64,000 bases of DNA from an uncultured Candidatus Saccharibacteria bacterium (GTDB lineage Bacteria; Patescibacteriota; Minisyncoccia; Phycocordibacterales; CSBR16-193): contig CAZLGQ010000001.1 in the NCBI GenBank assembly GCA_964559575.1, forward strand, positions 7,067 through 71,066, written 5' to 3'. Position numbers and translations under genes: made by a program. Shown here in pieces: positions 1 through 38,585 of this stretch (positions within the stretch are counted from its first letter, which is position 1; the number at the start of each line of letters is the position of its first letter). The notes below the pieces were generated by a model that was not told the origin of the DNA, made no database searches, and saw nothing but the letters and a program-made list of their open reading frames with translations.

Positions 1-653
1 AATCTACGTATGTCTTAATCGGATAAGGGTCAGGTTTAGTAAGTTTGAATTCACATCCCCAATAGATATATTTATTAAGATCAAATGGTATATATTTAAC
101 ATAATCTTCAACCTCATAAATTTCGGCATCCGGATACTGTGAATAAACCGCTGATTCTATATGTCGCCTCCATTCTTTTCTCATCCAGATAAAAAACCTT
201 ATTTCACCTTCAAAAGAAACCATTTCTAATGAAAACCAAGGTCTGGTTTTGCCATTTCTCCATTTATCTATTAACCCTCCTTCCCCTCCGGGTTGATGAA
301 AAGATTCTAATAATAACTCCATTGCTATAAGGGGTTTATTAACATTTTTTGGTATTTTTATTTCAATAACCGTTGATTCTTGGTTTAAAATAAAAGAGAC
401 CCTTTTGTAAGTTAAATAGGTGTTAATTGCCGCCATGGTAAAAACCATAGGAAAAAAGATTATTAGTATAAGAATAATGATCTTTAGTAGAAGTTCTAAA
501 TTACCGGTTGTAAATATAGTTGCCATCCATAAAAATAAAATAAGGATCAATGGAGATACCCAAATTAAAAAATAAACAACGTTCCTGATTATCTTATCAG
601 TATTATTAGGATCTTCTTTTTTATCTTTTGATTTTTCAGATGACTCCGGCATG
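1..653 (-). CDS. Partial CDS (N-terminal part only; runs off the window start): membrane-anchored hypothetical protein with a basic N-terminus followed by 2 TM helices
   Basis: ATG at 653..651 on the minus strand opens a frame with no stop down to position 1. Translation begins MPESSEKSKDKK and includes hydrophobic stretches FLIWVSPLILILFLW and IILILIIFFPMVF. This ORF is absent from the supplied track because it is truncated by the window edge. Confidence 0.4.
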
Positions 654-660
654 TCTGCCT

Positions 661-1701
661 TTATTTTACCACATGATAGTAACCATTTTCATCTCTAACA
701 AAGAAATGATCATTTTGTAAATTAACAAAGACAGTATTTTCTCTTACAAAACGTTCTTTTAAAACATTTTGAACTATTTCATCTGCGGTTAAAGGACCTT
801 TTTCTTCTAAGATCTTTTTAATAACATCTCTTACAACACCCTCAGAATAACCCCATTCCTTGAGAGCATATAACCCTCTACCAACTAAAACAAAACGAGG
901 ATCTTTTATTAGTTCATTGTGTGTGGTTGCAATGTGAGCTTTTTTATTAAAAATTTCTTCTATGGTTTTAGCTACCTCTCTAAAATGTGTAGGCTCTCCT
1001 TTTTTTCTTAATACTAAAAATGCATAGTCACGCATTCCCTTGGTGTATATATTATTTGAAGTAACTCTACCCCACTCTCCTAATGGATTTTTATCTATTT
1101 TTTTGGAAATGGATAACCATCTTCTAGCTATTTCTTCATTTTTATATTCTTCCGAAACATCTTCTAAATAGTTAAGAAACTTTTTTATTATATCAGGTTC
1201 AGATATAAGATCGTCATCTGATAAACTCTGGTAAAGTTTATTTAAAGAATTGTGTATTTTGTTTGATAGTTCCGGATCTATATGCCAACGGTGTTTAAAG
1301 TTTTCGTCTTCTTTTTCTTTATTAAAATAGTCATCTAAATATAAAAGAAAATGATAAAAGTTTTGAGTTGATTTATCTTTTGCAAGAAATTCAAGAAGAT
1401 CTGCTTCAGATACAACTTTTCCCAAGTTTTTTATAATACTATTCAGTTCATCAAATACGTGTGAGTATTTTTTGTATTCTTTAGATGATTTTATTATTGA
1501 AATAGAATTTTTTTCTATCTGACGGACACGTTCTCTAGTTATGCCATATTTTTTACCAATAGCTTCCAAGGTTTTTCTATTGGTGCTTTTTCCAAGACCG
1601 TGTCTTTCTACAATAACGTCCCTCCCCCTTTCTGATAAGGGTTGTAAAAGGTTTTTAACTACCTGTTTGGGTTTAAAAGTTACAGTAGAGATCTTAGGCA
1701 T
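661..1701 (-). CDS. Sigma-70 region 4-like HTH domain protein (N-terminal HTH, long C-terminal domain of unknown function)
   Basis: N-terminal segment HGLGKSTNRKTLEAIGKKYGITRERVRQIEKNSI resembles the sigma-70 region 4 helix-turn-helix. The remaining roughly 280 aa have no recognisable motif. Confidence 0.45.
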   Translation of the reverse strand: MPKISTVTFKPKQVVKNLLQPLSERGRDVIVERHGLGKSTNRKTLEAIGKKYGITRERVRQIEKNSISIIKSSKEYKKYSHVFDELNSIIKNLGKVVSEADLLEFLAKDKSTQNFYHFLLYLDDYFNKEKEDENFKHRWHIDPELSNKIHNSLNKLYQSLSDDDLISEPDIIKKFLNYLEDVSEEYKNEEIARRWLSISKKIDKNPLGEWGRVTSNNIYTKGMRDYAFLVLRKKGEPTHFREVAKTIEEIFNKKAHIATTHNELIKDPRFVLVGRGLYALKEWGYSEGVVRDVIKKILEEKGPLTADEIVQNVLKERFVRENTVFVNLQNDHFFVRDENGYYHVVK

Positions 1702-1820
1702 GTATTTATTATTAAATATTTATTTTAATTAATCAATCGGGATAATTATTTTAGTTAAGTTTTTCTTTTTAAATTTAAAAGAAATTTATACCATATATAA
1801 AAAAATTTTTCAAATTTAGC

Positions 1821-4800
1821 TTATATGATAATATTTATGATCCTGTTGGGAACAAAGAATACTTTTTTTATTTCTTTACCATTACACCATTTTGAAAAGA
1901 CTGGGGTTTTTTTAACCTCATCTAAAACGGTTTTTTCTTTAGAGTCTCTAGGTAGTTCTATACTACCTCTTGTTTTTCCATTTATTTGAAATATTATTTT
2001 TACATTTTCTTTTAATAGTACATCAGGGTTATATTTGGGCCAGTTTTTTTTATGAATTGAAGTTCTATTCCCAAGTGTTTCCCATATTTCTTCGGTTATA
2101 TGTGGAGCAAAAGGTGCTAAAAGAATTAAAAGATTTTCAAGATTTTCTTTTTTGATTTCTTCTTTTTCATCCATTAAATTAACCAAGATCATAAGAGAAG
2201 ATATTGCAGTATTGAAAGAAAAAGATTCAATATCTTCATTTACTTTTTTAATGGTTTTATGTAATGCGGTTTTTGTTTTTGTATCATTATTTTTATTTAA
2301 AGATACCTTTTTAGATAAATTCCAAACTTTTTCCAAAAATCTATGTGCTCCAACCGGACCATTGATATTCCAAGCTACTTCACCTTCAAAGGGTCCCATG
2401 AACATTATATATATTCTAGCCGCATCGGCTCCAAAATTCTTTATAATATCATCCGGACTTACTATATTTCCCCAACGTTTACTCATTTTTCTTCCATCCG
2501 GACCCAGTATAAGACCTTGATTTCTAAGAGCTATAAATGGTTCTTTTGTACTTACTAAATTTTCTTCGTATAAAAATTTATGCCAAAAACGTGAATATAT
2601 TAGATGCCTGGTGGCATGTTCAACACCTCCAACATAAAGATCAACCGGCATCCAGTATTTTTCCTTTTTCTGAGAAACAAATTCTTTATTATTACTAGGA
2701 TCAATAAAACGAAGATAATACCAACAGGATCCCGCCCATTGTGGCATGGTATTGGTTTCTCTTTTAGCTGAAGATCCACAGTTAGGACACTCTGTTTCAA
2801 CCCATGAAGAAATATTGGCTAAAGGGGATTCTCCGGTACCGGTAGGTTCATATGACTTAACTTCCGGAAGCTTAATTGGAAGATCTTTTTCCGGAACCGG
2901 AACTACTCCACATTTCTCACAATGAATTAAAGGTATAGGTTCACCCCAGTAACGTTGTCTGGAAAAGACCCAATCTTTTAATTTGTATGTAATTTTTTTC
3001 TTTCCTTCAACTTTCTTTCTTATCATCTCTTTTGCTTTTTCGCTTTCGATACCGGAGAGGTCTTCCGAGTTGGCTAGAACCCCACTTCCGATATAAGCAA
3101 AATCACCTTCTTTTTTTAACCATTCCATCCAGATGTCTATCTCTGCACAGGTGAGAGATTTAGCGGTCTCTTGGTTAAATTCAAGCCACTCTATATCATG
3201 TTTTTCCATTTCTACCTTTGAAATTTTCTTTCTCCTATTGCTTTTTAATTTGAAATGAACTGCAGTGGTATATGCTTTTCTGTTCTCATTTTTATGAGCT
3301 GCGTGATAATGGGCTTCCACTTGAAAAGGTGTCATCTTTTGAAATTCAAGATCAGTATAACCGGTTTCTTCTTCCACCTCTCTCTTTGCCGCTTTTACTA
3401 TATCCTCTCCTTCTTCCACTCCTCCGACTATAAATGTTCTCCAATTGAACTTTTTCCATTTTAAAAAGAGCATTTTACCGGAATCCGGATCTTCTACTAT
3501 TACATGAACAGTTTTCCTCTCCACCGTCTTTTTACCTTTTATGGGTGGAGTATATTTATCGATCCTTTTTGGATAGATGACATAATTTATTGGTAGGCCT
3601 TTTTTCGAGGCGAAATCAAAATCTCTCTCATCGTGAGCCGGAACCGCCATTATGGCCCCGGTTCCGTGGTTAGAAAGAACATAATCAGCGATCCATATAG
3701 GTATTTTTTTACCATTAACAGGATTTATTGCGTTTATTCCTTTTATTTCCACTCCTGTTTTATTTTTTTCCTCAGAAGTTCTTTGTAATTCTGTTTTTCT
3801 TTTTGTTTTATTTATATAGTTTTTAATTTCTTGTTTATTTTCTACAAAACTCCAAATTTCTTGGATCTTTTGATGCTCCGGAGCCACTACCATATAAGTA
3901 GATCCATAAAGCGTATCCGGTCTGGTAGTAAATACCGGAAGTGAGTCAGTTAAAAGTTTTTTAAGAGCCTTTTTAACCGGTAAAAGATCTTCTATGTCTT
4001 CTTTACTTCCTCCGTCTATATGTTTTCCGGTTTCTTTTGATCTATAAAGTCCTCTTAGGGGAAAATTTGGATTCAATTTTCCTTTTCTTTTAGTTGTCAG
4101 TATGACCTCTCTTTTATTTTTTTTATTTTTTATATCACCATTTGGGGTTGATAAAACCCAAACATCTTGCCAGTAAGCTTCCACTTCTCCTCCGTGTTTT
4201 TTAGCTATATTAGTATAATAACTAACCATCTTTTTACTTATCTGTTCTTTTGATAGTTTATTCTGCTCTTCTTCAGTTAAAACATTTCTTTTTACTTTTA
4301 TAGGATTATTTTTTTCACCCTTTATGTAAAAACCGGTATCTCCTGCCAGGATTGGTAAATTTGTTTTTTCTCTATAAGCCAAAGCTTTCTTTTCAGCATT
4401 TTTTAAAAGAGATACGCCTCCCTCAATAACTTCTATTTCTTTTATTCCTTTTTCCTTGGGAGTAAAAACTTTAATATCTAAACCTTCTGAGTTTAAAAGT
4501 TCCTGAACTCTTTCTTTTTTGCTTGGATTGTTACTTGCCAGAAGTATTTCTTTATATATACATACAGGAAAATCTATTTCCACACCTTGACTTTTCCCTA
4601 TCCAGTTTTTTTGAGAGTCTTTGATTGAATCCGGCCATTTATCTAAGAGATCAAGATCTTTTAAAAGGTCTTCGGCATAATCGGTTATCTTTAAAACCCA
4701 CTGTCTTACTGGCTTCTGTTCTACCTCAGAGTCACATCTCTCACAAAGACCATTTTCCAGATCTTCATTTGCTAGCCCAGTTTTACAAGACGGACACCAA

Positions 4801-26831: not shown

Positions 26832-26923
26832 AAAATAATTATATCACAAAACATGATCTTTCAAAAAATAAAATATTGCCTAGTCAACAAAATCTGATAT
26901 AATACTCTCATTAACAAAAAAAT

Positions 26924-26997
26924 TCTGGGGTAGCTCAATGGTAGAGCTCTCGACTGTTAATCGAGTGGTTGTGGGTTCGAATCCCACCCCCAGAGCC
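26924..26997 (+). tRNA. tRNA-Asn (anticodon GTT)
   Basis: Cloverleaf with acceptor stem TCTGGGG/CCCCAGA, D-arm GCTCAATGGTAGAGC, anticodon stem-loop CTCGA-CTGTTAA-TCGAG (GTT) and T-arm GTGGGTTCGAATCCCAC. A discriminator G and CC follow. The 3' A of CCA is not encoded. Confidence 0.85.
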
Positions 26998-27205
26998 GAC
27001 TAGGATCATTTTTGCAATTTAATAGTGCATTAAATAGGGATAGTATTGAGAACCCTAGCTTATTTTGATTTAGAATTAAATTCGAAAGTAAGAAGCTCAA
27101 AATTTGCTTTTTTACTCTGGTTTCGAACTCATAAACAGTTCCTTAGCTCTCTGTACTAATGTCAATACAGCATTGGCAGTTATCTTTATTTGCTATACTT
27201 ATATT

Positions 27206-27745
27206 ATGAAAAAACTTATATTTTTTGGAGACAGTCTATTAGCGAGAATTAACCCTGATATGATAAAAAAAATTGAGGAGAGTATCGGTAGTATTATTAT
27301 CGATAATCATGCAGTGGGAGGATCAACGACAAATGATGCACTGGAAATAATTGAGTCTGTTTCAAAATTGAAAGCTGACTATGTAGTAATATCTTTAGGG
27401 ACAAATGACATACTTAAAGACAATCTGTCCTGTCCTGAATATCTAGAAAACATGATAAAAATAATTTCTGAATTTTCCGAATCAAAAGTGTTCGTGTGGT
27501 TAACTCCTCCCGCCAACGACATAAACGACCCCGAAGGAACAAAAGAGTTTAATGAAAAGATTGGCCAATATTTCGATGGTCTAAAAAATATATGTAAAGA
27601 TTATAACTTTAACTTTATAGACACTTTTTCAGTCTACAAAGATGCGGTTATGCTTGATAATAAATATCACGAAGAAGATGGTATTCATTTAAGTGTTGAC
27701 GGATATAAACTATTTACTGGTTCATTAGTAAAAACTTTTAAATAA
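27206..27745 (+). CDS. SGNH/GDSL-family hydrolase
   Basis: FFGDSLLA (block I GDS) and ISLGTNDI (block III) motifs. Start moved to the internal ATG at 27206 (MKKLIFFGDSL), since the upstream part of the track ORF is a non-conserved hydrophobic extension. Confidence 0.6.
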   Translation: MKKLIFFGDSLLARINPDMIKKIEESIGSIIIDNHAVGGSTTNDALEIIESVSKLKADYVVISLGTNDILKDNLSCPEYLENMIKIISEFSESKVFVWLTPPANDINDPEGTKEFNEKIGQYFDGLKNICKDYNFNFIDTFSVYKDAVMLDNKYHEEDGIHLSVDGYKLFTGSLVKTFK

Positions 27746-27749
27746 GAGG

Positions 27750-28080
27750 TAGGTTTTGTATTACAACTCCTAGTGAAGAGAGTGAATTTATTTACTATTG
27801 TCAGGATTCGAAAGGTACAGCGATGTTTTTCCGGCAGGAAAAACCGCGAACCAAGGTCGTGAAAATTCAAAAGCGACGGCCTTTGAATTATTCTTAACCG
27901 AATCCTGCCGCTGGAGCAAAAGTCAGTTTAACCCCAATGCGCTAGCGTTGGGGTTTTACTGATCTTTCGCTGAGGTGAAATTTAAAAGACGGAGGCGGTA
28001 TACAAGACGAGCGTAGCGAGGGCCTGTCTAAGAGCTCGGGGTCGCGCTAACACTTAGCCGAAATAAGGAAATTCAATTAT
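27750..28080 (+). ncRNA. GC-rich, highly structured intergenic region: candidate stable ncRNA(s) of unassigned family
   Basis: A roughly 330-bp stretch at about 50% GC sits in a roughly 30% GC genome and has no convincing ORF. It contains a long-range pairing CAGGATTCG (27811..27819) with CGAATCCTG (27899..27907), internal hairpins TTTTTCC-GGCA-GGAAAAA and AATTCAAAAG/CTTTGAATT, and a terminator-like hairpin AACCCCAA-TGCGCTAGCG-TTGGGGTT plus T-run at about 27931..27960. A second GC-rich structured part occupies 27960..28075. Confidence 0.3.
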
Positions 28081-28120
28081 AACCCTTATCATATGTGATA
28101 TTATGTATTAAATTCATATT

Positions 28121-29011
28121 TTGATTAAAAATAAAAAAGCTATGAAAGTATTAATATCTAATACTAAAAAAGTTGAAGAGATCAAAAAGGAAATGCAAAG
28201 ATCTGGACCGGATAAGATCCACGTTCTTTCCGATTTTGATAGAACCCTAACCTACGGAACGACCAACGGAATAAAAACCCCCTCTATTATTTCCATGCTC
28301 AGGGATGGAAAACACTTAACAGATGATTATGCGGACAAAGCTCATTCTTTATTTAATAAATATCATCCACTTGAATCTGATTTGAACATTCCTTTAAGAG
28401 AAAGAAAAGAATTAATGCAAGAATGGTGGAAAAACCATCATGATCTATTGATTAAATCGGGTCTTAGCAAAAACGATCTTGAAGATACTGTTAAAAATGG
28501 ACATGTTAAATTCAGAGAAGGCGTTCCCGAATTTGTTGATCTTTTATATAACAAAAAGATCCCTTTGGTTATTATGTCAGCATGCGGTTGTGGAGAAGCA
28601 GTAAAAATGTTTTTTCAAAAGATCAAAAAAGATCATTCAAATATATTTTATATTATCAATAAATATCATTGGGATAAAAACGGAAAAGCTCTTTCTGCGA
28701 AAGAACCGATAATTCATGCTTTAAATAAAGATGAGACGGTGTTGGAGAATTTCCCGAATGTATATAAACATATAAAAGAAAGAAAAAAAGTTATTCTACT
28801 GGGAGATAGTATTGGAGATATTGATATGATCAAAGGATTTCGTTACGAGAAACTTTTAAAGATCGGGTTTTTAAACAGTGGTTATGAAAGATTAAGAGAA
28901 AAATATTTAGACAGTTTTGATATAGTTTTAGAGGGAGACAAGGATTTTTATTTCATAAATAAGCTCTTTAAAGAAATAATTTTAAAAAAAAATTTTAAAA
29001 TCTATAAATAA
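28121..29011 (+). CDS. HAD-superfamily pyrimidine 5'-nucleotidase (UMPH-1/NT5C3-like)
   Basis: HVLSDFDRTLT (HAD motif I, D-x-D-x-T) in the characteristic NT5C3 context, GDSIGDIDM (motif IV-like), and about 296 aa. Confidence 0.5.
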   Translation: MIKNKKAMKVLISNTKKVEEIKKEMQRSGPDKIHVLSDFDRTLTYGTTNGIKTPSIISMLRDGKHLTDDYADKAHSLFNKYHPLESDLNIPLRERKELMQEWWKNHHDLLIKSGLSKNDLEDTVKNGHVKFREGVPEFVDLLYNKKIPLVIMSACGCGEAVKMFFQKIKKDHSNIFYIINKYHWDKNGKALSAKEPIIHALNKDETVLENFPNVYKHIKERKKVILLGDSIGDIDMIKGFRYEKLLKIGFLNSGYERLREKYLDSFDIVLEGDKDFYFINKLFKEIILKKNFKIYK

Positions 29012-29016
29012 ATTTT

Positions 29017-29455
29017 ATGAAAATATATTTTGCAGGATCAATAAGAGGAGGAAGAGAAGATAGAGAAAAATATTTTAAAATAATAGAATACCTTAAAAAA
29101 CACGGTGAGGTTCTCTCCGAACATATAGGGTCTGAAAACATAGACCACAAAGGAGAAAAGCTCTCTTCAGAAGAAATATTTAACAGGGATGTAGAATGGA
29201 TAAAAAAAGCCGATGTGATCATCGCAGAAGTCTCCACACCCTCTTTAGGTGTTGGCTACGAAATATGCTTTGCAGAAGAATTGAATAAAAAAAATACTCT
29301 GTCTTTTTCAAGAGAACGACAATAAAAAGTTATCTGCGATGATAAGTGGAAATAAAAATATTAAAGTTAAATATTATAAAAATACTAAGGATATTTTTAT
29401 AACACTAAACAAATTTTTATCAAATTTAAATCATAAAAACAGTTCAGACACTTAA
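29017..29455 (+). pseudogene. 2'-deoxynucleoside 5'-phosphate N-hydrolase (DNPH1/Rcl-like), interrupted by a +1 frameshift in an A8 homopolymer
   Basis: Frame 1 (29017..29325) gives MKIYFAGSIRGGREDREKYF...VIIAEVSTPSLGVGYEICFAEELNKK, a strong match to the DNPH1/Rcl signature YFCGSIRGGRED...VVAEVTQPSLGVGYE. It stops early after the A8 run (29287..29294). The next frame continues KILCLFQENDNKKLSAMISG..., matching the DNPH1 continuation KPILCLFRPQSGRVLSAMIRG, and runs to a TAA at 29453..29455. Confidence 0.6.
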
Positions 29456-29545
29456 GTTTTTAAAAACAAAAATAACTTTTCAAACCATAATAATTTTGTT
29501 TATAAAAGTGATATACTTAATATATAAAACTATATAATTTTAATA

Positions 29546-30619
29546 ATGTATAACCGTATAGTAATAAAAGTTGGTACCAAGGTACTCTCCAATGATTTTA
29601 ATAGGCTTGATCTCACCGTTTTAAAACATTTAGTTAAACAGATCAACTTAATAAAAAATAAAGGAACCGAAGTTGTTTTGGTTACATCAGGTGCTGTAGG
29701 AGCCGGTAGAGATTTAATAAACCTTAAAGATATTGAAAAAATAGCAGAAAAACAGATCCTTTCCTCTATAGGTCAGGTTAAATTAATGAATTTTTATTCA
29801 AAATATTTTGCAGAGTATGATCAATTATGTGCTCAAGTATTGGCTACCAAAGAAGACTTTAGAGATAGAAAACATTACTTTAATATGAGAACCTGTTTTA
29901 ATAATCTATTAAAAAGTGGTGTCATTCCGGTAGTAAATGAAAATGATGTTATAGCTACTACAGAACTTCTCTTTACCGATAACGATGAATTAGCAGGTCT
30001 TGTAGCATCCTTACTAAACGCTGATGCAGTAATAATTCTTACAAGTGTTGAAGGTTTTCTAACAGGTGACCCTGAAGATCCCAATTCTAAAATCATTTCT
30101 GAAATTGATTTTAATAAAATTAAAAATATTGAAAAATTTATTTCTAACGAAAAAACTACCTTGGGACGTGGAGGTATGCTTACTAAATTTAATATAGCAA
30201 AAAAACTAACCATTCAGGGTATTACCGTCTTATTTGCTAACGGTAAAAGAAAAAATGTTTTAACTGACATATTTAATAATAAAAAGATCGGAACCAAATT
30301 TACTACTTCAAAAAAATCATCTTCTATCAAAAGACGTCTTGCTTACTCGGAAGGATTAACCAAAGGAATGGTTAAAATAGACAAACAGGCTGTAAACCTT
30401 TTACGTTCTAAAGAAAACATCATCAGCTTATTGCCTATAGGGGTAATAGATATTCATGGTGATTTTTATAAAGGTGATATTATTGAAATCGTAAGTGAAA
30501 AAAAAGAAAAAATAGGTTTTGGGATAACTCAGTACGATTCTCAAAAAGCCAAAGATCTAATAAAAACTAAAAATAAAAAACCGATCATTCATTATAACTA
30601 TATGTTCATTAATATTTAG
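29546..30619 (+). CDS. proB: Glutamate 5-kinase with C-terminal PUA domain
   Basis: IVIKVGTKVLS, VLVTSGAVGAG and NENDV amino-acid-kinase motifs, plus a C-terminal PUA-like region (MVKIDKQAVNLL...GDIIEIVSEK). Confidence 0.85.
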   Translation: MYNRIVIKVGTKVLSNDFNRLDLTVLKHLVKQINLIKNKGTEVVLVTSGAVGAGRDLINLKDIEKIAEKQILSSIGQVKLMNFYSKYFAEYDQLCAQVLATKEDFRDRKHYFNMRTCFNNLLKSGVIPVVNENDVIATTELLFTDNDELAGLVASLLNADAVIILTSVEGFLTGDPEDPNSKIISEIDFNKIKNIEKFISNEKTTLGRGGMLTKFNIAKKLTIQGITVLFANGKRKNVLTDIFNNKKIGTKFTTSKKSSSIKRRLAYSEGLTKGMVKIDKQAVNLLRSKENIISLLPIGVIDIHGDFYKGDIIEIVSEKKEKIGFGITQYDSQKAKDLIKTKNKKPIIHYNYMFINI

Positions 30620-30660
30620 AATATATCTAAATATTAAATTAATTTTATTTAAAAAATTAA

Positions 30661-30682
30661 AGGGGAGTTTAAAACCTCCCCT
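30661..30682 (-). terminator. Rho-independent terminator hairpin (acts mainly on the minus strand for the Zn-ribbon gene pair)
   Basis: AGGGGAG-TTTAAAAC-CTCCCCT perfect 7-bp GC-rich stem. On the minus strand it is followed by a T-rich run, and it lies about 29 nt downstream of the stop of the 30711..30974 ORF. Confidence 0.45.
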
Positions 30683-30710
30683 TTATGATCGTTCCGATCG
30701 ACATAACTAA

Positions 30711-30974
30711 TCAGTCCCTCCAAGGAGAGTCCTTTTCTAAGGCCTCCTTTTGGCGCTTTGCTTGCTCATTCAAGCACAAAGCACAACTGATTTTCACGTC
30801 TATTGGAACGCGTTGGTCGTCGGTTGCCCCGAGGACAACTCCACACTTCTCGCATTTCAAAGTGCGTTTTTGCCCGTTCAGGCAATCAGAACAAATGACC
30901 GAGATGTTTTCTGGTACTCGCTCATCTGCTGTGGCGGCGAAAATACCGTCGCAGCTAATGCATACCAAAATCAC
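30711..30974 (-). CDS. Small double zinc-ribbon protein (internally duplicated CxxC...CxxC module), in a GC-rich island
   Basis: GTG start preceded by AGGAGG. Two homologous modules (ADERVPENISVICSDCLNGQKR and TDDQRVPIDVKISCALCLNEQAKR) each carry a CxxC-x17-CxxC spacing. Their nucleotide differences are mostly synonymous, which indicates purifying selection. Codon usage is GC-rich and unlike the host. Confidence 0.45.
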   Translation of the reverse strand: MILVCISCDGIFAATADERVPENISVICSDCLNGQKRTLKCEKCGVVLGATDDQRVPIDVKISCALCLNEQAKRQKEALEKDSPWRD

Positions 30975-31028
30975 CTTAAACCCCTCCTAGGTTATAGACA
31001 ACGACCCTAAAGCCGAGGTCTATCTGGG

Positions 31029-31217
31029 TTAGTAGCGTCCTCCTACGACACTATCCATTTGAGACACGCAATGGTGCCCCTTTTCATCCTGATTCAGTGC
31101 AAACACCACCTTCACAGAGGTACCTTGCAACTGACGGCATTTGTGGCAGACTATGATCTTAACGACCCAATAGTCACGTGAATCATAAACCCTGCCACAC
31201 TGAGCGCATCTAACCAT
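31029..31217 (-). CDS. Small zinc-ribbon protein (CxxC...CxxC), in a GC-rich island
   Basis: 62 aa: MVRCAQCGRVYDSRDYWVVKIIVCHKCRQLQG.... An SD-like GGATAAGG lies upstream. Codon usage is GC-rich. The gene sits directly upstream of and on the same strand as the 30711..30974 ORF. Confidence 0.4.
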   Translation of the reverse strand: MVRCAQCGRVYDSRDYWVVKIIVCHKCRQLQGTSVKVVFALNQDEKGHHCVSQMDSVVGGRY

Positions 31218-31396
31218 AACCTTATCCTTTCCTGGTTATCAAGGAACAACACGAGGGAAACATTCCCCCCGATCAGTTAAACAATTAATCTAACCAATCG
31301 GGGAAAATGATTTCCTCAACTAAAATTTTTGCCATTAAACCAGATTTAATAACAAATGTAAATACTAACGACTATATTAATAATAATATAGAAAAA

Positions 31397-32083
31397 TTAA
31401 AAATATTTATTTATAAAATCTTCAGCCTTTTTTAAATCAATTGGAGTAGTTATTTGTAACCAAAAACGACTAAATACCGGAGTAATCGTTTTTTTGTTTG
31501 CCAATTGAAGAAGAGTTTGAGGTAACCCCCACTCTTCTTTACCACTTAACTTTTGCTGAGTACAAGAAAATATTTGATCAGTCATAGAATAAAGTCCGGT
31601 ATTTAAATAACCGGTAACACCACCATGATCATTACCTTCTTTTATTTCTTTTATTCGATTAAATTCATCAAAAACTACTTTTCCACCAGAGTATAAATTA
31701 TTAACTTTAGATATCCCAATAGAAAAAGAATGTTCTGTACAAGACCTTATATCAGAAGGATGATAAATATCATCACCCATCATAACTAAAAAATGTTCAT
31801 TTAAAATATCCTTAGCTTGCCACAATGCATCAGCAGTACCTAAAAAATCAGACTGTTCTACATAACGCAATGGTATACCTTTATAAACTTTCCCTAAATA
31901 TTGATAAATATCAGACTTTCTGTAACCAACTACTAAAATTACTTCTTTTATTTTTTCCGGTAAAAAGTCTAATTTATACTCTAACAACGTTTTATTTTTG
32001 ATCTTTAAAAGTGGTTTAGGAGTTAACTCAGTATGATTTCCCATTCTAATTCCTCTACCAGCTGCTAGAATAACTACTTGCAT
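31397..32083 (-). CDS. Sugar-phosphate nucleotidyltransferase (NTP_transferase family)
   Basis: MQVVILAAGRGIRMG...TPKPLL is the canonical G-x-G-x-R nucleotidyltransferase N-terminus, so the start was moved to that Met (32083). The track ORF has 8 extra N-terminal codons. Confidence 0.6.
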   Translation of the reverse strand: MQVVILAAGRGIRMGNHTELTPKPLLKIKNKTLLEYKLDFLPEKIKEVILVVGYRKSDIYQYLGKVYKGIPLRYVEQSDFLGTADALWQAKDILNEHFLVMMGDDIYHPSDIRSCTEHSFSIGISKVNNLYSGGKVVFDEFNRIKEIKEGNDHGGVTGYLNTGLYSMTDQIFSCTQQKLSGKEEWGLPQTLLQLANKKTITPVFSRFWLQITTPIDLKKAEDFINKYF

Positions 32084-32163
32084 AAATAATAAGTAAAATA
32101 ATATCACAATATTTTTTTAAAAAAAATATTGTGATAATATTACTTTGTAATATTTAAATAAAA

Positions 32164-32814
32164 ATGAAACTTATACCGGATAAAGAAATAATTAAAATAC
32201 CTATAAAAGATAACAAAGAAAAACTTGTTCATGTTAGAAAATACGTTCCAAATATAGTTATCAGACCAGGTTTATATATAAAAAAAGAAGGAAATAGTAC
32301 CTGCAAAAAAGCCTGTTTAATAAGAGAAAGTGTTGGAAAACGTTTAAAGGTAGCTCAAGATTTACTACCTAAAGAATACAGGTTAATGCTTAGATGTGGA
32401 TACAGACCCATATCACTACAAAAAAAACACTATATAGAAGAACGTAATCGCTTAAAAAAGAAAAATCCATCCTGGAGTAAAGAAAAACTAAACACAGAAA
32501 TGGATATGCGTATTGCTCCATTGTATATAGTACCTCCGCACCCTACAGGTAGCGCAGTTGATATAACCATAATTGATAATAAATACCACCAACTTGATAT
32601 GGGTACTAAATTAGGAGAATTTAACAAAGAAAAAACATTTACTTATTCCAAAAATATTTCTAACCTAGCAAAAGAAAATAGAAAACTTTTAATAAATGTT
32701 ATGGAAAAAGCAGGTTTTGTTAATTATCCAACCGAATGGTGGCATTGGTCGTATGGAGATAGATACTGGGCTGCCGTAAAAAAAGAAAAAATTTCTATAT
32801 ACGATAAGATATAA
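32164..32814 (+). CDS. D-alanyl-D-alanine dipeptidase (M15 family, VanX/DdpX-like)
   Basis: Zn-binding motifs PHPTGSAVDITIID (SxHxxGxAxD) and PTEWWHWSYGD (ExxH). Confidence 0.7.
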   Translation: MKLIPDKEIIKIPIKDNKEKLVHVRKYVPNIVIRPGLYIKKEGNSTCKKACLIRESVGKRLKVAQDLLPKEYRLMLRCGYRPISLQKKHYIEERNRLKKKNPSWSKEKLNTEMDMRIAPLYIVPPHPTGSAVDITIIDNKYHQLDMGTKLGEFNKEKTFTYSKNISNLAKENRKLLINVMEKAGFVNYPTEWWHWSYGDRYWAAVKKEKISIYDKI

Positions 32815-32873
32815 CAAAAGAGCGTCCTAGCTTTTAACTAAAACGCTCCTTTAGCCTTTTTAGGGCTTTTGAG

Positions 32874-34118
32874 TCAAACAAAGTCGAGTCTTTTCCGTAC
32901 CTCTTTGACAACCGCTTTCGCTTCTTCTCGAGAATTGATGGACAGTCCGGTAACATCAATGCCACCGTGATAGAGCACACCGGGATTGGTTATGACCGCA
33001 AAAGGTTCTTGAGTCGATGGAACCAAAATCTCTTTCAGTTCACCAAACAGCTCTTTAAACCCTAAGCTTTTCCCGGTTGAAATGTGTTCATGCCAAAAGT
33101 GGTAACCGAAAGATCCGGGGTTACGGATCTTCGCCAATCGTTTTGACATCTCATAGATAAAAACTATTGCGCCTTTCCTGGGATTGAAATCAGTCCAGTA
33201 GACGTTTCCAGTTTCATCTATAAGAATATCACAACAGAAATAACCTTTGGCACCGGATCTCTGAAGATAAGGAACAAGTTTGGTTTCCAGATCTGTTCTG
33301 ATCCTACTCTCTATCTCTCTGGTAAGCCTAGTTGGAAAGGCTGTACCGGAATAAGACAGATTAGTGGATAGTTGATCAAAGATACCTATATCCAAAAACT
33401 TCCCATCTTCAGTGATCTCCCAATGAACACAGACTTCATCAACGATCTTGACCATCTGCTCTACGATGAAGGGGCTGCACATCCCTTCAACTGTTGGCAT
33501 TTTTGCCACAAGATCTTCATAAGATGAGATCTGATGCAATCCACCCAGATCTACACCACCCGTACCTCTTGAGGATTTCAGAAGAAAACCATTTCCATTC
33601 TTACCTGTAAGGAATGACTTGGTTACCTTGAGAAGTTCTTCCGGATCCTTACCACCCACCCAAGGGGCGGTTTTTAATCCCAGTTCTTCACAAAGCAACT
33701 TAAAGTTATACTTACAGGCAAAAGGAATGGATACCTCAAAGTTACAGTAAGGAGGAATCCCCAGAATTGAAGAAAGATAACGTTCACTTTCTTCTATCCA
33801 GAAAAACTCCAATCGGGCAGATCGACCATTAATGGACCCCAGAATCTCATCCTGAACTTCTTGCTTGGAGATTACCAAATCGGCTAAAGTAAGATCTCTA
33901 TCAAACGGACCAGCTACGATCATTCTCGGTAATGTAAAACCGAGATCCTGCCAATAGGCAAGATAATCAGAATCGATCGGTTTGGTAGTGACCACTACAT
34001 GACCATCTCCAACTTGGCACAGTCCGCCACGTTGATCAAAATCTTGCTCCATCTCAATACCTCGAAAGAGACTATTGCTCTGAGTCTCGATCATAACACG
34101 AGTTTTTTCGCCTTTCAT
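32874..34118 (-). CDS. ATP-grasp family ligase (substrate unknown), GC-rich and compositionally foreign
   Basis: C-terminal ATP-grasp core LLKSSRGTGGVDL, FIVEQMVKIVDEVCVHWEI and YFCCDILIDETGNVYWTDFNPRKG (the D-x-N catalytic loop). Local GC is about 45% against about 30% in neighbouring genes. Confidence 0.6.
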   Translation of the reverse strand: MKGEKTRVMIETQSNSLFRGIEMEQDFDQRGGLCQVGDGHVVVTTKPIDSDYLAYWQDLGFTLPRMIVAGPFDRDLTLADLVISKQEVQDEILGSINGRSARLEFFWIEESERYLSSILGIPPYCNFEVSIPFACKYNFKLLCEELGLKTAPWVGGKDPEELLKVTKSFLTGKNGNGFLLKSSRGTGGVDLGGLHQISSYEDLVAKMPTVEGMCSPFIVEQMVKIVDEVCVHWEITEDGKFLDIGIFDQLSTNLSYSGTAFPTRLTREIESRIRTDLETKLVPYLQRSGAKGYFCCDILIDETGNVYWTDFNPRKGAIVFIYEMSKRLAKIRNPGSFGYHFWHEHISTGKSLGFKELFGELKEILVPSTQEPFAVITNPGVLYHGGIDVTGLSINSREEAKAVVKEVRKRLDFV

Positions 34119-34174
34119 GTCTATCCTCCTCTTTCTTCAATGTTTGACCTGAAAAGAACAACAACGGCCTTATT

Positions 34175-34223
34175 CCAAGACCGTAGATATACATAAGTTA
34201 TTTATATGTATCTACGATCTTGG
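34175..34223. promoter_or_regulatory. Long near-perfect palindrome (about 20-bp arms) between the native M20 gene and the GC-rich ATP-grasp gene
   Basis: CCAAGACCGTAGATATACATA-agttattt-ATATGTATCTACGATCTTGG. It lies 57 nt upstream of the ATP-grasp start codon and has no T-run, so it is more operator-like than terminator-like. Confidence 0.3.
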
Positions 34224-34278
34224 ATATTGACATTTTATAAATATTATTTCTTAAACATACAAACTTTATTTAATTAAG

Positions 34279-35370
34279 TCAATAACCTTTATTGGTATCA
34301 AAATTCAAAAGATCAATTAATGACTCATATAAAAAATAAACAGAATCCATATCAACCCATTCTTCATTTTGATGCGCACCTCCTCCATCAGGTCTCCAAA
34401 GTACTGCAGGAATTCCGTGTTCTGTAAAAAAAACAGCATCACTGGTTCCATTTTCATGTTTAAAGATCATTTTTTTTCTTAATTTCTTTTGTAAAACCTT
34501 TTTCAATACCTGAAGCCATAATTCATTTTCATTAGTAAAAAATAGATCATTTTCTGAAACAACTTCCACCTCTCCTTTTTTCCCTACAAACTTATTCAAT
34601 TCTTTTTTAATATTCTTAAGATCCTCATTTTTAGTAAAACGTATATCAAAATAACCTTCAGCATATTCTGGTATCTGATTTAAACTATTATCAGTAGAAA
34701 CCTTGGTTAAAACCACACTGGTCTTCCATTGATCTTTAAAAGTAGGTCCGGGGAACATTTCAGAAAGTTTATTTTGTAAGACCAATAACTTAGGAATTGG
34801 ATTTTCTCCTTTCCAAACTTGAGAAGAATGACAACTCTTACCCGGTAAAGTAACCTTAAACTGAATAAAACCTTTCTGTTTATTAACTATTTGATTTCCT
34901 CCACCACCATCTGCAATAAAAGCAAAATCAGCATGGTAACCTTTATCTTTTAATAAAGCATAAGTTCCATATCCACTTTTCTCTTCATCGGAAGTAATCA
35001 AAATTGCTATTTCTTTTTTCCCTCCCCTTTTTTTATATTCAGTTGCTGCATATAGACAAGCCACTAAGCCGGCTTTCATATCATAAGCACCACGACCATA
35101 AAGTTTTCCGGCTTGTTCTTTAGGCTTGAATAATTCTTCAGATCCTTTTACAACATCAATGTGTCCGGAGAAAATTATATCTACCTTTTTTTTATTTGTA
35201 GTTGAAAAGACCAAAGCCGGATGACCTTTTAAATTATACTTAGAGATCTTAAAGACACCTTTAAATTTTTTTTCTAAGAGATCCAAGCATTCTTTTTGTT
35301 TTTCTATATTCTCTTCTGTTGATCTTATTGAAATAAGCTTTTTAGATAGATCTAATATTTGTTTTTTCAT
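34279..35370 (-). CDS. M20-family metallopeptidase (DapE/ArgE-like), native AT-rich composition
   Basis: SGHIDVV and GRGAYDMKAG (M20 metal-binding/catalytic motifs), FIADGGGG, and 363 aa. Confidence 0.7.
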   Translation of the reverse strand: MKKQILDLSKKLISIRSTEENIEKQKECLDLLEKKFKGVFKISKYNLKGHPALVFSTTNKKKVDIIFSGHIDVVKGSEELFKPKEQAGKLYGRGAYDMKAGLVACLYAATEYKKRGGKKEIAILITSDEEKSGYGTYALLKDKGYHADFAFIADGGGGNQIVNKQKGFIQFKVTLPGKSCHSSQVWKGENPIPKLLVLQNKLSEMFPGPTFKDQWKTSVVLTKVSTDNSLNQIPEYAEGYFDIRFTKNEDLKNIKKELNKFVGKKGEVEVVSENDLFFTNENELWLQVLKKVLQKKLRKKMIFKHENGTSDAVFFTEHGIPAVLWRPDGGGAHQNEEWVDMDSVYFLYESLIDLLNFDTNKGY

Positions 35371-35395
35371 AATTTATTTACATAAAAACTAAAAA

Positions 35396-35422
35396 TAAAA
35401 CGACCTCTTGAGGTCGTTTTAA
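35396..35422. terminator. Bidirectional intrinsic terminator
   Basis: AAAA-CGACCTC-TTG-GAGGTCG-TTTT: a perfect 7-bp GC-rich stem flanked by an A-run and a T-run. Confidence 0.5.
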
Positions 35423-35577
35423 TATTTTATTTATTCTTGATTTTATATTATTTAGAATAAACACCATTAAACAACCTCAAAAGTCTTGAAGTTACGACGG
35501 TCGTTTCTACGAACAGTATTTATTCTATTTAACATATAATAAAATTTAATAAAAAAAATTAAAAAAGTCAATAAAAA

Positions 35578-35610
35578 AGGGGTACCGGCAACTAACGTCA
35601 CCGATACCCC
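35578..35610 (-). terminator. Intrinsic terminator of the GC-rich ArgE-like/ArgA-like operon (minus strand)
   Basis: GGGGTACCGG-caactaacgtca-CCGATACCCC hairpin lies immediately after the stop at 35618. It is followed on the minus strand by TTTTTTATT. Confidence 0.45.
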
Positions 35611-35617
35611 AATGGAC

Positions 35618-36613
35618 TTACAGTTCCTTCACCCAAACTTCTTTAGAACCTTGGTTCAAATCAAACATTCGTTCTTTTTTGAAACCAAAGTTTAAAAAGT
35701 CAGGCAAAATACCCACTAAGGGCGGTGCTTGTTCAGCACAAAGGTACAACTGCTTTTTCCGGAGTTTCATGGACTTATTGACCGCATACTTGATCAATGG
35801 AGTCAAAACCTCCGAAACGGCTAACTCAGAAGAGTAGCCAAGGTAACTCATTTTCATCTTCCCGTTGACTTCAGGGTTTAGCATCAGAGCTCCATAGGGA
35901 TATCCGTCAATTGCGAAAACGACGAATTTATCGATATTCTCAGCAATGAATGACTCAAAAACACAGCCATTTAGCAAAGACTTGAGAATCCGAGTGACTT
36001 CCGGAATATCAGACCTCGTTGCAGATCGAACCTTCTTATATGAAGATCCGGCTCTGTAGATCATTGTTCCGGAACCTTTCCCTGTTAGAAACTCTTCCAA
36101 AAAAGCTTCCCTGCGACAGATGTTGGTAAAGTGAACACGAGAGATTCCTATGTCACAAAAACCAACCGCATACTCAAGACACGTCCTCATCAAGCCATTG
36201 ACTACATTCTCTTCCTCTAGAAGTTCTTGTGCTTCCATATCCGTCATTTCACTAACAAGCTTCCCCTTATTGAAGATGCCGTCAGTATTACAGAGAAAGA
36301 AGAACTTGGAAGCTTTGAGAACCTCCACCAAGGTAAAGAGATCTTTCTCTTCAACTACTTCGTGGTACTTCACTCCACGTTCCTGAAGCGTATTTTCCAA
36401 AAAAGGAATATCCACGCTGTTACAAAGAAAATGGAGATCGACCCCTAAGCTATCAAGAAGATGAATGTCTTCAATAATAGCTTCAAAGTTTGATTCCTTC
36501 TTCCTTGGAAAAGCACTGCAGACAAGAACACGCTTCCCATTCCAACGGATCAGGCTACTCAACATCTCTCTGGTAGGACGTCCATCCATGACCATTTCCT
36601 CCTCACTTTCCAC
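35618..36613 (-). CDS. Amino-acid N-acetyltransferase-like protein: amino-acid-kinase fold plus C-terminal GNAT (short ArgA/NAGS-like architecture), GC-rich
   Basis: TDGIFNKGKLVSEMTDMEAQELLEE...VNGLMRTCLEYAVGFCDIGISRVHFTN...LTGKGSGTMI matches the C-terminal half of the AAK fold (TDVdGV...GGM.pKl.aa..A...Gv..v.I..g...GT.I). The C-terminal roughly 120 aa (LGYSSELAVSE...) resembles GNAT. GC is about 45%. Confidence 0.45.
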   Translation of the reverse strand: MESEEEMVMDGRPTREMLSSLIRWNGKRVLVCSAFPRKKESNFEAIIEDIHLLDSLGVDLHFLCNSVDIPFLENTLQERGVKYHEVVEEKDLFTLVEVLKASKFFFLCNTDGIFNKGKLVSEMTDMEAQELLEEENVVNGLMRTCLEYAVGFCDIGISRVHFTNICRREAFLEEFLTGKGSGTMIYRAGSSYKKVRSATRSDIPEVTRILKSLLNGCVFESFIAENIDKFVVFAIDGYPYGALMLNPEVNGKMKMSYLGYSSELAVSEVLTPLIKYAVNKSMKLRKKQLYLCAEQAPPLVGILPDFLNFGFKKERMFDLNQGSKEVWVKEL

Positions 36614-37739
36614 ACATGTCTTGTATCAAACGGACATATTGTGAAACAACTTTGTCCGAAAAATACTTTTCATGCATGAATTCATTCGGTTTATGAGCCT
36701 GTTGAATGGATCCGGGTCCGTATATCACTGATTCAATACCGGCGGAGTTAAAAACACCCCCTTCAGTATTAAAAGAAGTTGACGCCGATGTCTTACCGGA
36801 TACCTTTTCAACGCTCTTAACAAGCGACGATCCAGTGTCCGTTTCCATCGGAGGAGTTGGAGTTCTTCCAAAACTCACCTTAACTTCCAAACCGTCATCG
36901 ATACCCTCGTTAACGGAAATGAAGTCAGAAAAAGCTCGAAAGACATCATCAACATCCTGACCTGGGATTGGTCTGATATCAAGCTCAATACGACAGTAGT
37001 CCGCTATGATGTTCTTAGCGGAGTTATCTCCGGTCGTAACGACACCAACATTGAGAGTTGGATAAGTCGGGTCAAACCGAGGATCAGAAATGACCTCTAG
37101 ATGCCTCTTGAAGTCATTTATCTTCCGAAGAACCAAAGGGAGAGCTGTTTGCACAACGTTCAATCCCTCATTGGGACGCGAACTGTGTACACGCTTACCC
37201 TTAAGTTCCACCTTGACATACATATACCCCTTGTGGAGAATGTACGACTCAAGCTCGGTAGGCTCTCCGATCAGAACCGTATCTGCGAATTTTCCTCTGT
37301 CGTTGATGAGCTTCTTAGCACCAACACAACCAACCTCTTCATCACTCGTAAAAACAAGTCCGAAAGGCTTTTTGAGTTTGTGCTCTTGGATGTATGAAGC
37401 GGCCTTCATGGCTACTGCCAGAAAACCTTTCATGTCGCAAACCCCTCTGCCGAAGTACTTATTCCCCTTCTTGGTAAGAAAAAGAGGATCAGTACTCCAA
37501 TTCCTGATATCGTAAGGAACGGTATCCATATGTCCTGACAAGGCGAAGTGAGTATCATGACCGCCCTTCTTGGCGATCATGTTTACCTTCTTTACGCCCT
37601 TTTGGATATAAGGGTACTGTTCAATAACGAAACCTTCGTCTTCCAAAAACTCACTGATGAAATCAGCGATGCTTCCGGTTTCCTTATTACTTACAGTGTC
37701 AAAGGAAATGAGTTTCTCAGCGATCTCGATCGTCTCCAT
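36603..37739 (-). CDS. M20-family deacylase (acetylornithine deacetylase ArgE / DapE-like), GC-rich
   Basis: LSGHMDTVPYD and GRGVCDMKGFLAVAM motifs. Start moved to Met24 (METIEIAEKLISFDTVS), which has a strong GGAGAGGA SD. Overlaps the downstream AAK-GNAT gene by 11 nt. Confidence 0.7.
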   Translation of the reverse strand: METIEIAEKLISFDTVSNKETGSIADFISEFLEDEGFVIEQYPYIQKGVKKVNMIAKKGGHDTHFALSGHMDTVPYDIRNWSTDPLFLTKKGNKYFGRGVCDMKGFLAVAMKAASYIQEHKLKKPFGLVFTSDEEVGCVGAKKLINDRGKFADTVLIGEPTELESYILHKGYMYVKVELKGKRVHSSRPNEGLNVVQTALPLVLRKINDFKRHLEVISDPRFDPTYPTLNVGVVTTGDNSAKNIIADYCRIELDIRPIPGQDVDDVFRAFSDFISVNEGIDDGLEVKVSFGRTPTPPMETDTGSSLVKSVEKVSGKTSASTSFNTEGGVFNSAGIESVIYGPGSIQQAHKPNEFMHEKYFSDKVVSQYVRLIQDMCGK

Positions 37740-37856
37740 GGCTATCCTCTCCTCTACTCTCGGGCCAGAATTTTTATTTGACAAAGAACTAACTATAAGT
37801 CCAATCAAAAAAATACCACTTTATAGAAAAAAAAGTCAAAACAATTTTACTAAAAA

Positions 37857-38585
37857 TTACTTTAAATAAGCTTTTATTAAAACCTCTTCTCCAGCAATTG
37901 AAATAGTATCAAATAAAGATAATGGAGAAATATCTTCTTTTTTTATAGCAATAGGTAACTCGGTACAACCAAGAACCACAGCTTCTGCTCCTTCAGAAAC
38001 CATTCTATCTATTATTTTTTTTAACAAGATAACCTCCTTCTCTCCATTAGAACCAGACATTACGGTTAATATTATATTATTTATTATCTCTTGCTCTTTA
38101 TCTGTAGATAAAACAGGTTCAATTCCTTTACTTATCGCCATATTTTCATACAGCTTTAAATTTTTAGTACTTTCAGAATTTAATATTGCCACTTTTTTAA
38201 AACCTTCATTCAAAACCTGATCAATGGTTTTTTCAATTAAATTAACTATAGGAACATTAATTGAATTTTGCATATCTTCATAAAAATAATAAACAGTATT
38301 ACAAGCAATTACTATAAAATCACTACCGGCATTTTCCAATTTTTTTAAACCTTCTATAAGTTGTTTTTTAACCAGATCTTTATCAACAAAACCGGTTTCA
38401 TCAAAACCTTTTAATGGTAAATTATATATAAGAATCGGTGGATAATCACTGTCCTGTTGAGCACCATAAACATCTTGCGCTATCTTAACTATTCTTTGAT
38501 AAATACAGACACTTGCCTCGGGACCAATACCACCTAAAACACCTAAAGTCTTACCATTAACTTTATACTCAAACTTTTTGGACAT
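37857..38585 (-). CDS. Asp/Glu racemase family protein (putative aspartate racemase)
   Basis: GVLGGIGPEAS near the N-terminus and VVLGCTELP near the C-terminus (the two catalytic-Cys regions of the Asp/Glu/hydantoin racemase fold). Length is 242 aa. Confidence 0.65.
   Translation of the reverse strand: MSKKFEYKVNGKTLGVLGGIGPEASVCIYQRIVKIAQDVYGAQQDSDYPPILIYNLPLKGFDETGFVDKDLVKKQLIEGLKKLENAGSDFIVIACNTVYYFYEDMQNSINVPIVNLIEKTIDQVLNEGFKKVAILNSESTKNLKLYENMAISKGIEPVLSTDKEQEIINNIILTVMSGSNGEKEVILLKKIIDRMVSEGAEAVVLGCTELPIAIKKEDISPLSLFDTISIAGEEVLIKAYLK

Follow-up and report, generated by a model that had tools for sequence, protein, structure and literature searches.

A compact island of GC-rich DNA interrupts the AT-rich contig CAZLGQ010000001.1, of which a 64-kb stretch was analysed (the whole stretch is called the window here). 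The host is an AT-rich, Paceibacteria-like bacterium of the candidate phyla radiation (CPR) found in soda-lake sediment metagenomes (metagenome-assembled genome GCA_003555445.1; JGI sample SL_8KL_010_SED). The island, positions 30658–31317, is the richest GC patch of the 64 kb. It is approximately 0.65 kb long and lies between proB (29546–30619, plus strand) and a nucleotidyltransferase gene (31397–32107, minus strand), whose 3′ ends are convergent. When GC content was calculated in 200-nt windows, the island (30700–31299) had 44.5–49.5%, compared with 23–33% in the flanks and an average of 31% over the full 64 kb. Read 5′ to 3′, the minus strand carries a leader hairpin, a U-rich tract, a ribosome-binding site (RBS), gene A, a spacer, gene B and a terminator.

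Gene A (31029–31217, minus strand) begins with ATG and encodes a basic protein of 62 aa with a single zinc ribbon. Gene B (30711–30974, minus strand) begins with GTG and encodes an acidic tandem zinc-ribbon protein of 87 aa. Both genes are preceded by Shine-Dalgarno sequences: AAGGA at 31225–31229 for gene A, and AGGAGG at 30983–30988 for gene B. The latter is located in the 54-nt spacer (30975–31028, minus strand) together with a small stem-loop that folds no better than shuffled sequence (z = −0.6). GC content at third codon positions (GC3) is 51% in gene A and 53% in gene B, versus 16–21% in the flanking genes. This difference indicates that the island DNA is foreign. The plus strand across the island also holds open reading frames (ORFs) of 101 and 86 aa, so ORF length by itself is no evidence of coding at this locus.

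The two ends of the island form hairpins. At the 3′ end, an intrinsic terminator (30658–30685, minus strand) consists of a 10-bp stem followed by AUUUUUUAAA and lies between gene B and the convergent proB. It folds with z = −3.9, and a terminator scan detects it in the minus orientation alone. At the 5′ end, the leader hairpin (31253–31317, minus strand) has imperfect arms of 27 nt each (31253–31279 and 31291–31317) and a perfect 16-bp core (31267–31303), and is followed by GUGUUGUUCCUUGA and the RBS of gene A. The folding energy is −41 kcal/mol (z = −5.2). The CCCCGAT...ATCGGGG repeat at 31267–31303 is unique within the window. A candidate sigma-70-like promoter, TTTACA-17 nt-TTTAAT (31334–31362, minus strand), may be placed upstream of the leader hairpin on the strength of its hexamers. 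It was not listed by the promoter consensus scan, in which the second base of the −10 hexamer had to be A. Another promoter-like site, at 31242–31213, was rejected since its −10 hexamer overlaps the start codon of gene A.

The initial annotation of this DNA, made from the sequence alone, had described a patch of about 50% GC bounded by a terminator hairpin and an inverted repeat, with two co-oriented small ORFs preceded by good RBSs. Each of these features was found, the inverted repeat being a single copy within longer imperfect arms. The core of that description, namely two co-oriented small zinc-ribbon genes, one of them internally duplicated, on DNA of foreign composition, is borne out.

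Protein A contains one ribbon with the spacing C4-x2-C7-x16-C24-x2-C27. Protein B contains two modules, and both have the pattern CxxC-x19-CxxC rather than the x17 spacing first given for them. The modules share 15/36 residues. On recount, 10/32 non-cysteine positions are identical (permutation p = 7e-5), confirming the suggestion that the modules are homologous. At the nucleotide level they are 56% identical, with approximately 14 synonymous and 34 non-synonymous differences (pS 0.60, pN 0.40). The 15 conserved residues are specified by differing codons in nine cases. Since non-synonymous differences outnumber synonymous ones, the earlier statement that the modules differ mainly at synonymous positions is incorrect. 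Between the knuckles of each B module is the motif D-x-R-[VI]-P. The second module is followed by a helix (LDEQAKKQ-EAL) and the terminal sequence [ED]SP[WM]RD.

Structure prediction of B by AlphaFold2 from an alignment of four sequences gave two three-stranded ribbons and a helix at residues 70–82 (pLDDT 76, pTM 0.56). Prediction from the single sequence was poor (pLDDT 48). In the model, the predicted ribbons have the two CxxC knuckles on beta-hairpins and the invariant cysteines expected of a generic zinc-ribbon fold.

Homologues of A and B are rare. Searched singly against 5.8 billion proteins by word index, each ORF matched nothing but itself. HMMER, run in full over 1.84 billion cluster representatives with B as the query, recovered P0004, a protein of 87 aa with two modules (47% identity, E = 3.8e-12), and P0005, a protein of 50 aa with one module and the same tail. 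P0004 shares with B the two-module layout, the C-terminal tail (ESPMRD in P0004) and the MILVC start, which in the window is produced by the GTG start codon of gene B. A profile search added P0006, and P0008–P0010 were also added by profile search and cluster look-ups. Module 1 of B has more in common with its counterpart in P0004 than with module 2 of B. The duplication therefore predates the split between the two proteins. Within the modules, C5, C8, C28 and C31 are invariant in 7/7 B modules. The equivalent cysteines of the A family (C4, C7, C24 and C27) are invariant in 7/7 proteins of the A and A′ types, A′ being the paralogue of A described below. The A family has the ribbon pattern CxxC-x16-C[HS]xC, with W17, F39, D44-E45-x-G47 and V51 also conserved. 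The families differ in charge: pI is 9.0 for protein A (8.7–9.0 in its family) and 5.1 for protein B (4.5–5.4).

Apart from a lone B gene, the only relatives of A and B are on six phage-like contigs (L006–L011) from the same soda-lake samples. These contigs carry a block of four genes, A-A′-C-B, in which the A-type and B-type genes are ordered as they are in the window. A is 55–56 aa and 42–46% identical to the window protein, the paralogue A′ is 58 aa, C is 29 aa with a CxxC...CxxC pattern, and B follows. Contigs with a single-module B have an A homologue upstream wherever the contig reaches far enough. The stop and start codons of successive genes overlap or almost abut, indicating translational coupling. 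Because A′ is acidic and C is basic, the charge of the encoded proteins alternates along the block (A+, A′−, C+, B−). The window has no A′ or C, nor the small HNH gene that directly follows B in the phage-like block.

ORF C was missed by gene callers. It is present at L006 1296–1382, L007 1821–1907 and L008 353–439, and also in L009, L010 and L011; in each it lies between A′ and B, its start and stop codons overlapping those of its neighbours. It encodes M[RK]VLCYVC[LM]WIV[KT]PR[WR]GCCPVCGCRLGGG, has a dN/dS of approximately 0.1 and has no counterpart in the window.

The lone B gene encodes a two-module homologue and is located at 2072–2335 of contig L005 (GCA_964483595.1), between genes for a TrmB-family regulator and superoxide dismutase. 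That genome has approximately 60% GC. The B homologue itself, at 52–57% GC, is below its neighbours, and no A-type gene is present.

Purifying selection is evident among the homologues. Comparisons among the six phage-like contigs gave dN/dS values of 0.04–0.24 for A, A′, C and B (0.07–0.24 for gene A alone). Between the window and the phage-like contigs synonymous sites are saturated, while 42–58% of residues and all zinc ligands are retained. With protein homologues of both ORFs, the same gene order elsewhere and purifying selection among the homologues, the earlier claim of real coding sequence under selection is upheld, on evidence other than that first offered for it. These results show that A and B are genuine proteins of two rare, previously unclassified zinc-ribbon families. 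Approximately 10 closely related loci were found among approximately 15 billion predicted proteins. The families escape word-indexed searches and every curated family library and are missed by standard annotation.

The leader is shared with these loci as well. A hairpin occupies the position equivalent to the window leader in five of the six phage-like loci (L006, L007, L009, L010 and L011). A 33-nt leader element (31239–31271, minus strand; CGGGGGGAATGTTTCCCTCGTGTTGTTCCTTGA), made up of the 3′ hairpin arm and the U-rich tract, is identical at 28/33 nt to the leaders of L007 and L011, a score reached by 0/2000 shuffles. The coding DNA of the window is only 50–59% identical to that of the phage-like loci. 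Therefore the leader has moved together with the genes and is itself constrained. L006, L009 and L010 have a different hairpin at this position, and (U)UGUUCUUUGA, or a variant of that sequence, comes after it. The terminator scan also marks the leader (31271–31252) as terminator-like.

The phage-like contigs have 43–51% GC and represent a single mosaic population in variant forms; the identity between L009 and L010, for instance, is 98% but is confined to the cassette. Their other genes include an N6/N4 DNA methyltransferase (PF01555 at 8.9e-27; phrog_67 at 4e-40), a glucosyltransferase (phrog_854 at 2.6e-26) and a gene matching another phage family, phrog_33187 (6e-13). One of them, L011, was assembled from the same sample as a contig of the host, L013 (ERZ27266004). 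The closest relative among species representatives is a distant member of the Paceibacteria (46% identity in the nucleotidyltransferase), and a synteny search found no island there. Together with the compositional data, these observations show that the island is a compact, horizontally acquired minus-strand cassette consisting of a leader hairpin, A, B and a terminator. That the cassette is both coding and horizontally acquired is a conclusion we hold with high confidence.

No target-site duplication, flanking direct repeat or terminal inverted repeat was found around the island, and the window holds no second copy. Neither a recombinase nor a transposase lies beside it; the neighbours are proB, the nucleotidyltransferase gene and a D-Ala-D-Ala dipeptidase gene. 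A search for an empty-site allele through exact matches to proB recovered only identical island-bearing contigs, and the five assemblies that span the island have the same sequence there. Neither the presence/absence polymorphism nor the insertion-site duplication proposed as a check was found. Of the suggestion that the genes are the cargo of mobile DNA, the part that is supported is derivation of the cassette from phage; no insertion-site duplication, terminal repeat or empty site accompanies it.

No member of the A or B family exceeded the threshold in Pfam, PHROG, PADLOC or NCBIfam, where only sub-threshold generic zinc-ribbon matches were obtained. The best PDB profile matches had E values of 0.13 (the AgmX ribbon, 7zok) and 0.29. 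The fold and profile check recommended in the initial annotation thus returned generic zinc-ribbon matches, none of them significant.

The closest functional analogy for protein A is Com of phage Mu, which is basic, 62 aa long and of the CxxC-x16-CxxC type. It attaches to an mRNA hairpin beside the RBS and activates translation of the DNA-modification gene mom (PMC6483171). Com (PF10122, Zn_ribbon_Com) and A are alike in length (approximately 62 aa), basic charge and an N-terminal CxxC-x16-CxxC ribbon. Com is phage-encoded and lies among DNA-modification genes, which is a further likeness. It binds a hairpin beside an RBS, and A has a conserved hairpin directly upstream of its own RBS, to which it might bind. 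We aligned the A profile by hhalign with a Com sequence, and obtained a probability of 64% over 29 ungapped ribbon residues. That Com sequence matches PF10122 at 2.7e-9 and is a genuine member of the Com family. In contrast, the C-terminal halves of Com and A are unrelated, and no mom-like gene is adjacent to A in the window. The resemblance is a lead, by analogy only, as to how A may work.

Other small zinc proteins are more distant. MJ0042-type ribbons, represented in Pfam by Zn_ribbon_4 and Zn_ribbon_5 and exemplified by the N-terminal ribbon in AgmX (7zok), have a similar two-hairpin CxxC...CxxC arrangement and hydrophobic pattern, and 7zok is the non-significant best PDB sequence match of the B module noted above. 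The Zn_ribbon_4 and Zn_ribbon_5 matches of A and B scored 9–13 bits against Pfam cut-offs of approximately 30, and the D-x-R-[VI]-P motif, C-terminal helix and SPWRD end of B are absent from these families. The C4 zinc fingers of DksA/TraR proteins are small, often phage- or plasmid-borne, and have the pattern CxxC...R.P...CxxC. This pattern resembles the B module, but the spacing is 17 in DksA/TraR and 19 in B. DksA/TraR proteins have a coiled-coil with an acidic tip, whereas the model of B has no N-terminal coiled-coil. Pfam scans gave no match of A or B to a DksA/TraR family model, and the PDB search returned no DksA/TraR chain. Haloarchaeal C(P)XCG zinc-finger micro-proteins such as HVO_2753 and HVO_0758 have fewer than 70–90 aa and one or two predicted zinc fingers, and their functions are pleiotropic or unknown (PMC11241148, PMC10716476). 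A and B have no sequence relationship to them, and their CxxC motifs lack the CPxCG signature. Unlike the haloarchaeal proteins, the relatives of A and B sit in a conserved multi-gene phage-like cassette. Zinc-ribbon mini-proteins encoded by accessory DNA of phage origin are a known kind, to which A and B add two new families.

Morons are short foreign inserts in phage genomes that carry their own terminator. The island is like a moron in having its own terminator, a composition unlike its surroundings and mosaicism among related phages. It is unlike one in sitting in a bacterial chromosome without a recognisable prophage, with a promoter that is only a candidate. The explanation we favour overall, and consider probable, is that the island is a foreign, phage-derived cassette encoding an accessory zinc-ribbon pair with a regulatory or host-takeover role. 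The pair may have been an accessory, moron-type element of a phage before its capture by the bacterium.

The mechanistic part of this explanation, comprising binding, complexes and a regulatory role, is tentative and in its particulars unlikely to be right. Each CxxC...CxxC module would bind one zinc ion. Proteins of this size are probably too small to be enzymes and would act through binding. The alternation of basic and acidic proteins (A+, A′−, C+, B−) and the translational coupling of their genes suggest hetero-complexes. The basic protein A would most likely bind nucleic acid, a candidate target being its own conserved leader hairpin, in the manner of Com. The acidic protein B may be a partner or modulator of A, acting through its C-terminal helix and invariant SP[WM]RD end. 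A bolder proposal, which we consider somewhat more doubtful still, is that A, A′, C and B form a new class of charge-complementary zinc-ribbon mini-proteins that work in hetero-complexes, either helping a phage to take over its host or to counter host defences, or regulating translation as Com does, with the leader hairpin as operator. The CPR bacterium might then have captured a reduced set, A and tandem B, for its own use, for example in superinfection exclusion. A translationally coupled four-gene operon of zinc ribbons only, with alternating charge and a leader hairpin, does give research on small proteins, and on how phages and Patescibacteria interact, a definite hypothesis to work from.

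Several observations weigh against the favoured explanation. The phage-like contigs are just 0.9–2.4 kb long, their identity as phage rests on a few neighbouring genes, and no structural phage gene was seen in them. Scans of IMG/VR with both family alignments and two neighbouring genes gave no match, nor did tblastn against cultured phages and plasmids. The family and fold searches yielded only generic, non-significant zinc-ribbon matches, and no member of either family has an experimental or homology-based functional annotation. None of the 7 A and A′ proteins matches PF10122, even at E ≤ 10, and A is therefore not a demonstrable member of the Com family. The occurrence of B without A in L005 implies that an obligate A:B complex is not required. 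The leader hairpin and U-tract could be simply the terminator of an upstream gene, and the promoter at 31334–31362 is a weak candidate, read from its sequence. Finally, the five assemblies do not differ anywhere in the island, leaving no variation from which selection in the CPR host could be read.

The most durable alternative is a decayed prophage or other integrated element, of which the island would be an inert remnant with ORFs that are intact but no longer serve the host. Codon usage is wholly unameliorated (GC3 51–53%), the population lacks the variation that could reveal selection, and three genes of the phage-like block (A′, C and the HNH gene) are absent. Further GC-rich, foreign-looking genes lie within 7 kb, where one assembly has a junction resembling that of a mobile genetic element (MGE). 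Against decay stands the intact state of both ORFs, both RBSs, the leader element and a correctly oriented terminator. Although synonymous divergence is saturated against all relatives, 42–58% protein identity and every zinc ligand are kept, and the two-module form of B is shared with the L005 gene and older than their split. We regard a remnant as unlikely, although it is the alternative that fares best.

A small toxin-antitoxin-like module had been suggested for the locus; it would be an addiction module with A as the basic toxin and B as the acidic antitoxin. A compositionally foreign mini-island of two genes, a pair of basic and acidic proteins, and relatives on mobile-looking DNA are the kind of features that invite it. 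No toxin or antitoxin fold and no defence-system model was matched in Pfam, NCBIfam or PADLOC, and the suggestion gained no positive support. The proteins are bare zinc ribbons without a catalytic or membrane-active region (GRAVY −0.1 to −0.5). The gene organization also speaks against it: the phage-like version has four genes rather than two, B is alone in L005, and the window genes are 54 nt apart, each with its own RBS. An addiction module is thus quite improbable.

We wondered whether the island might instead be a tiny autonomous or integron-like mobile cassette, inserted by a site-specific recombination event that used the hairpin. Composition changes sharply at the boundaries, the conserved hairpin at the 5′ edge is common to the phage-like loci, and the cassette-limited identity of L009 and L010 shows mosaicism among the phage-like contigs. 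The missing target-site duplications, terminal inverted repeats, second copy, adjacent recombinase and empty site argue against such movement. When the hairpin was compared with the general layout of attC sites, words resembling GTTRRRY and RYYYAAC were found in the loop, but in the wrong order and position for attC. As there is also no integrase, the attC reading of the hairpin was rejected, and an integron-like cassette is, if anything, slightly less probable than an addiction module.

The least probable alternative, and a very unlikely one, is a structured non-coding RNA, with ORFs that arose by chance where stop codons are sparse. In an AT-rich genome, a GC-rich island is often an RNA. The minus strand of the island (623 nt) folds with z = −8.3 (20 shuffles) or −6.2 (40 shuffles), and ORFs of 86–101 aa occur on both strands. 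However, most of this signal is due to the hairpins at either end and to uneven composition; the interior (30801–31100) gives only −2.4. Ordinary GC-rich enzyme genes in the window reach −6.3 and −6.5, and the homologous cassettes of L006, L007 and L008 fold at 0.0, −0.4 and +1.1. After these controls the strong fold was rejected as evidence for an RNA. Rfam searched over the whole window at the gathering score found only a tRNA (26924–26995). Over 30500–31500 at E ≤ 10 there was no Rfam match to the island beyond chance hits at the end hairpins, far below the gathering score. An Rfam match covering ORFs that are not conserved had been named in advance as the outcome that would overturn the coding interpretation; Rfam gave no match, and both ORFs proved to be conserved. 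The protein conservation, with a dN/dS of 0.04–0.24 and saturated synonymous sites, cannot be accounted for by an RNA. The island is a clean example of the very recent capture of a phage-type small-gene cassette rather than a hidden structured RNA.

Several other features of the window and related contigs were noted. Three minus-strand genes at 32874–34118, 35618–36613 and 36603–37808 encode a pre-ATP-grasp-like protein, an unknown protein of 331 aa and an M20 peptidase. They have 42–44% GC and a GC3 of 39–46%, versus 16–21% in neighbouring genes, which suggests that these genes too arrived by horizontal transfer. Folding of their mRNA strands gave z values of approximately −6.

Contig L001 (PWIA01000004.1) matches the window at 99.96% over 26993–37936. 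Beyond the junction at window position 37936, which lies inside the 3′ end of a racemase gene, L001 carries 3.3 kb (1–3282) of 40–52% GC that is absent from the window. This segment holds ParB_N-like and unknown ORFs and has no similarity to the phage-like contigs. The junction is either that of an MGE in another strain or the product of a chimeric assembly.

Downstream of tRNA-Asn (26924–26997), contig L012 (1–1371; run SRR490134) and the window are 99.9% identical; directly upstream of the tRNA gene they diverge, with the junction at window position 26917. This divergence suggests a strain-variable region at the tRNA gene. On the phage-like contig L010, positions 1882–1946 gave a sub-threshold Rfam match to YrlA, a Y RNA-like family (38.6 bits versus a gathering score of 69; E = 1.5e-5). 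ARAGORN found no tRNA there.

A second GC-rich patch (46%) of approximately 290 nt is located at 27775–28072 of the window, between GDSL-lipase and UMPH-1 nucleotidase genes. It has no credible ORF and no Rfam match, and a multi-stem fold is predicted on either strand (z = −4.3 on the plus strand, −4.2 on the minus strand). This patch may be an unclassified structured RNA.

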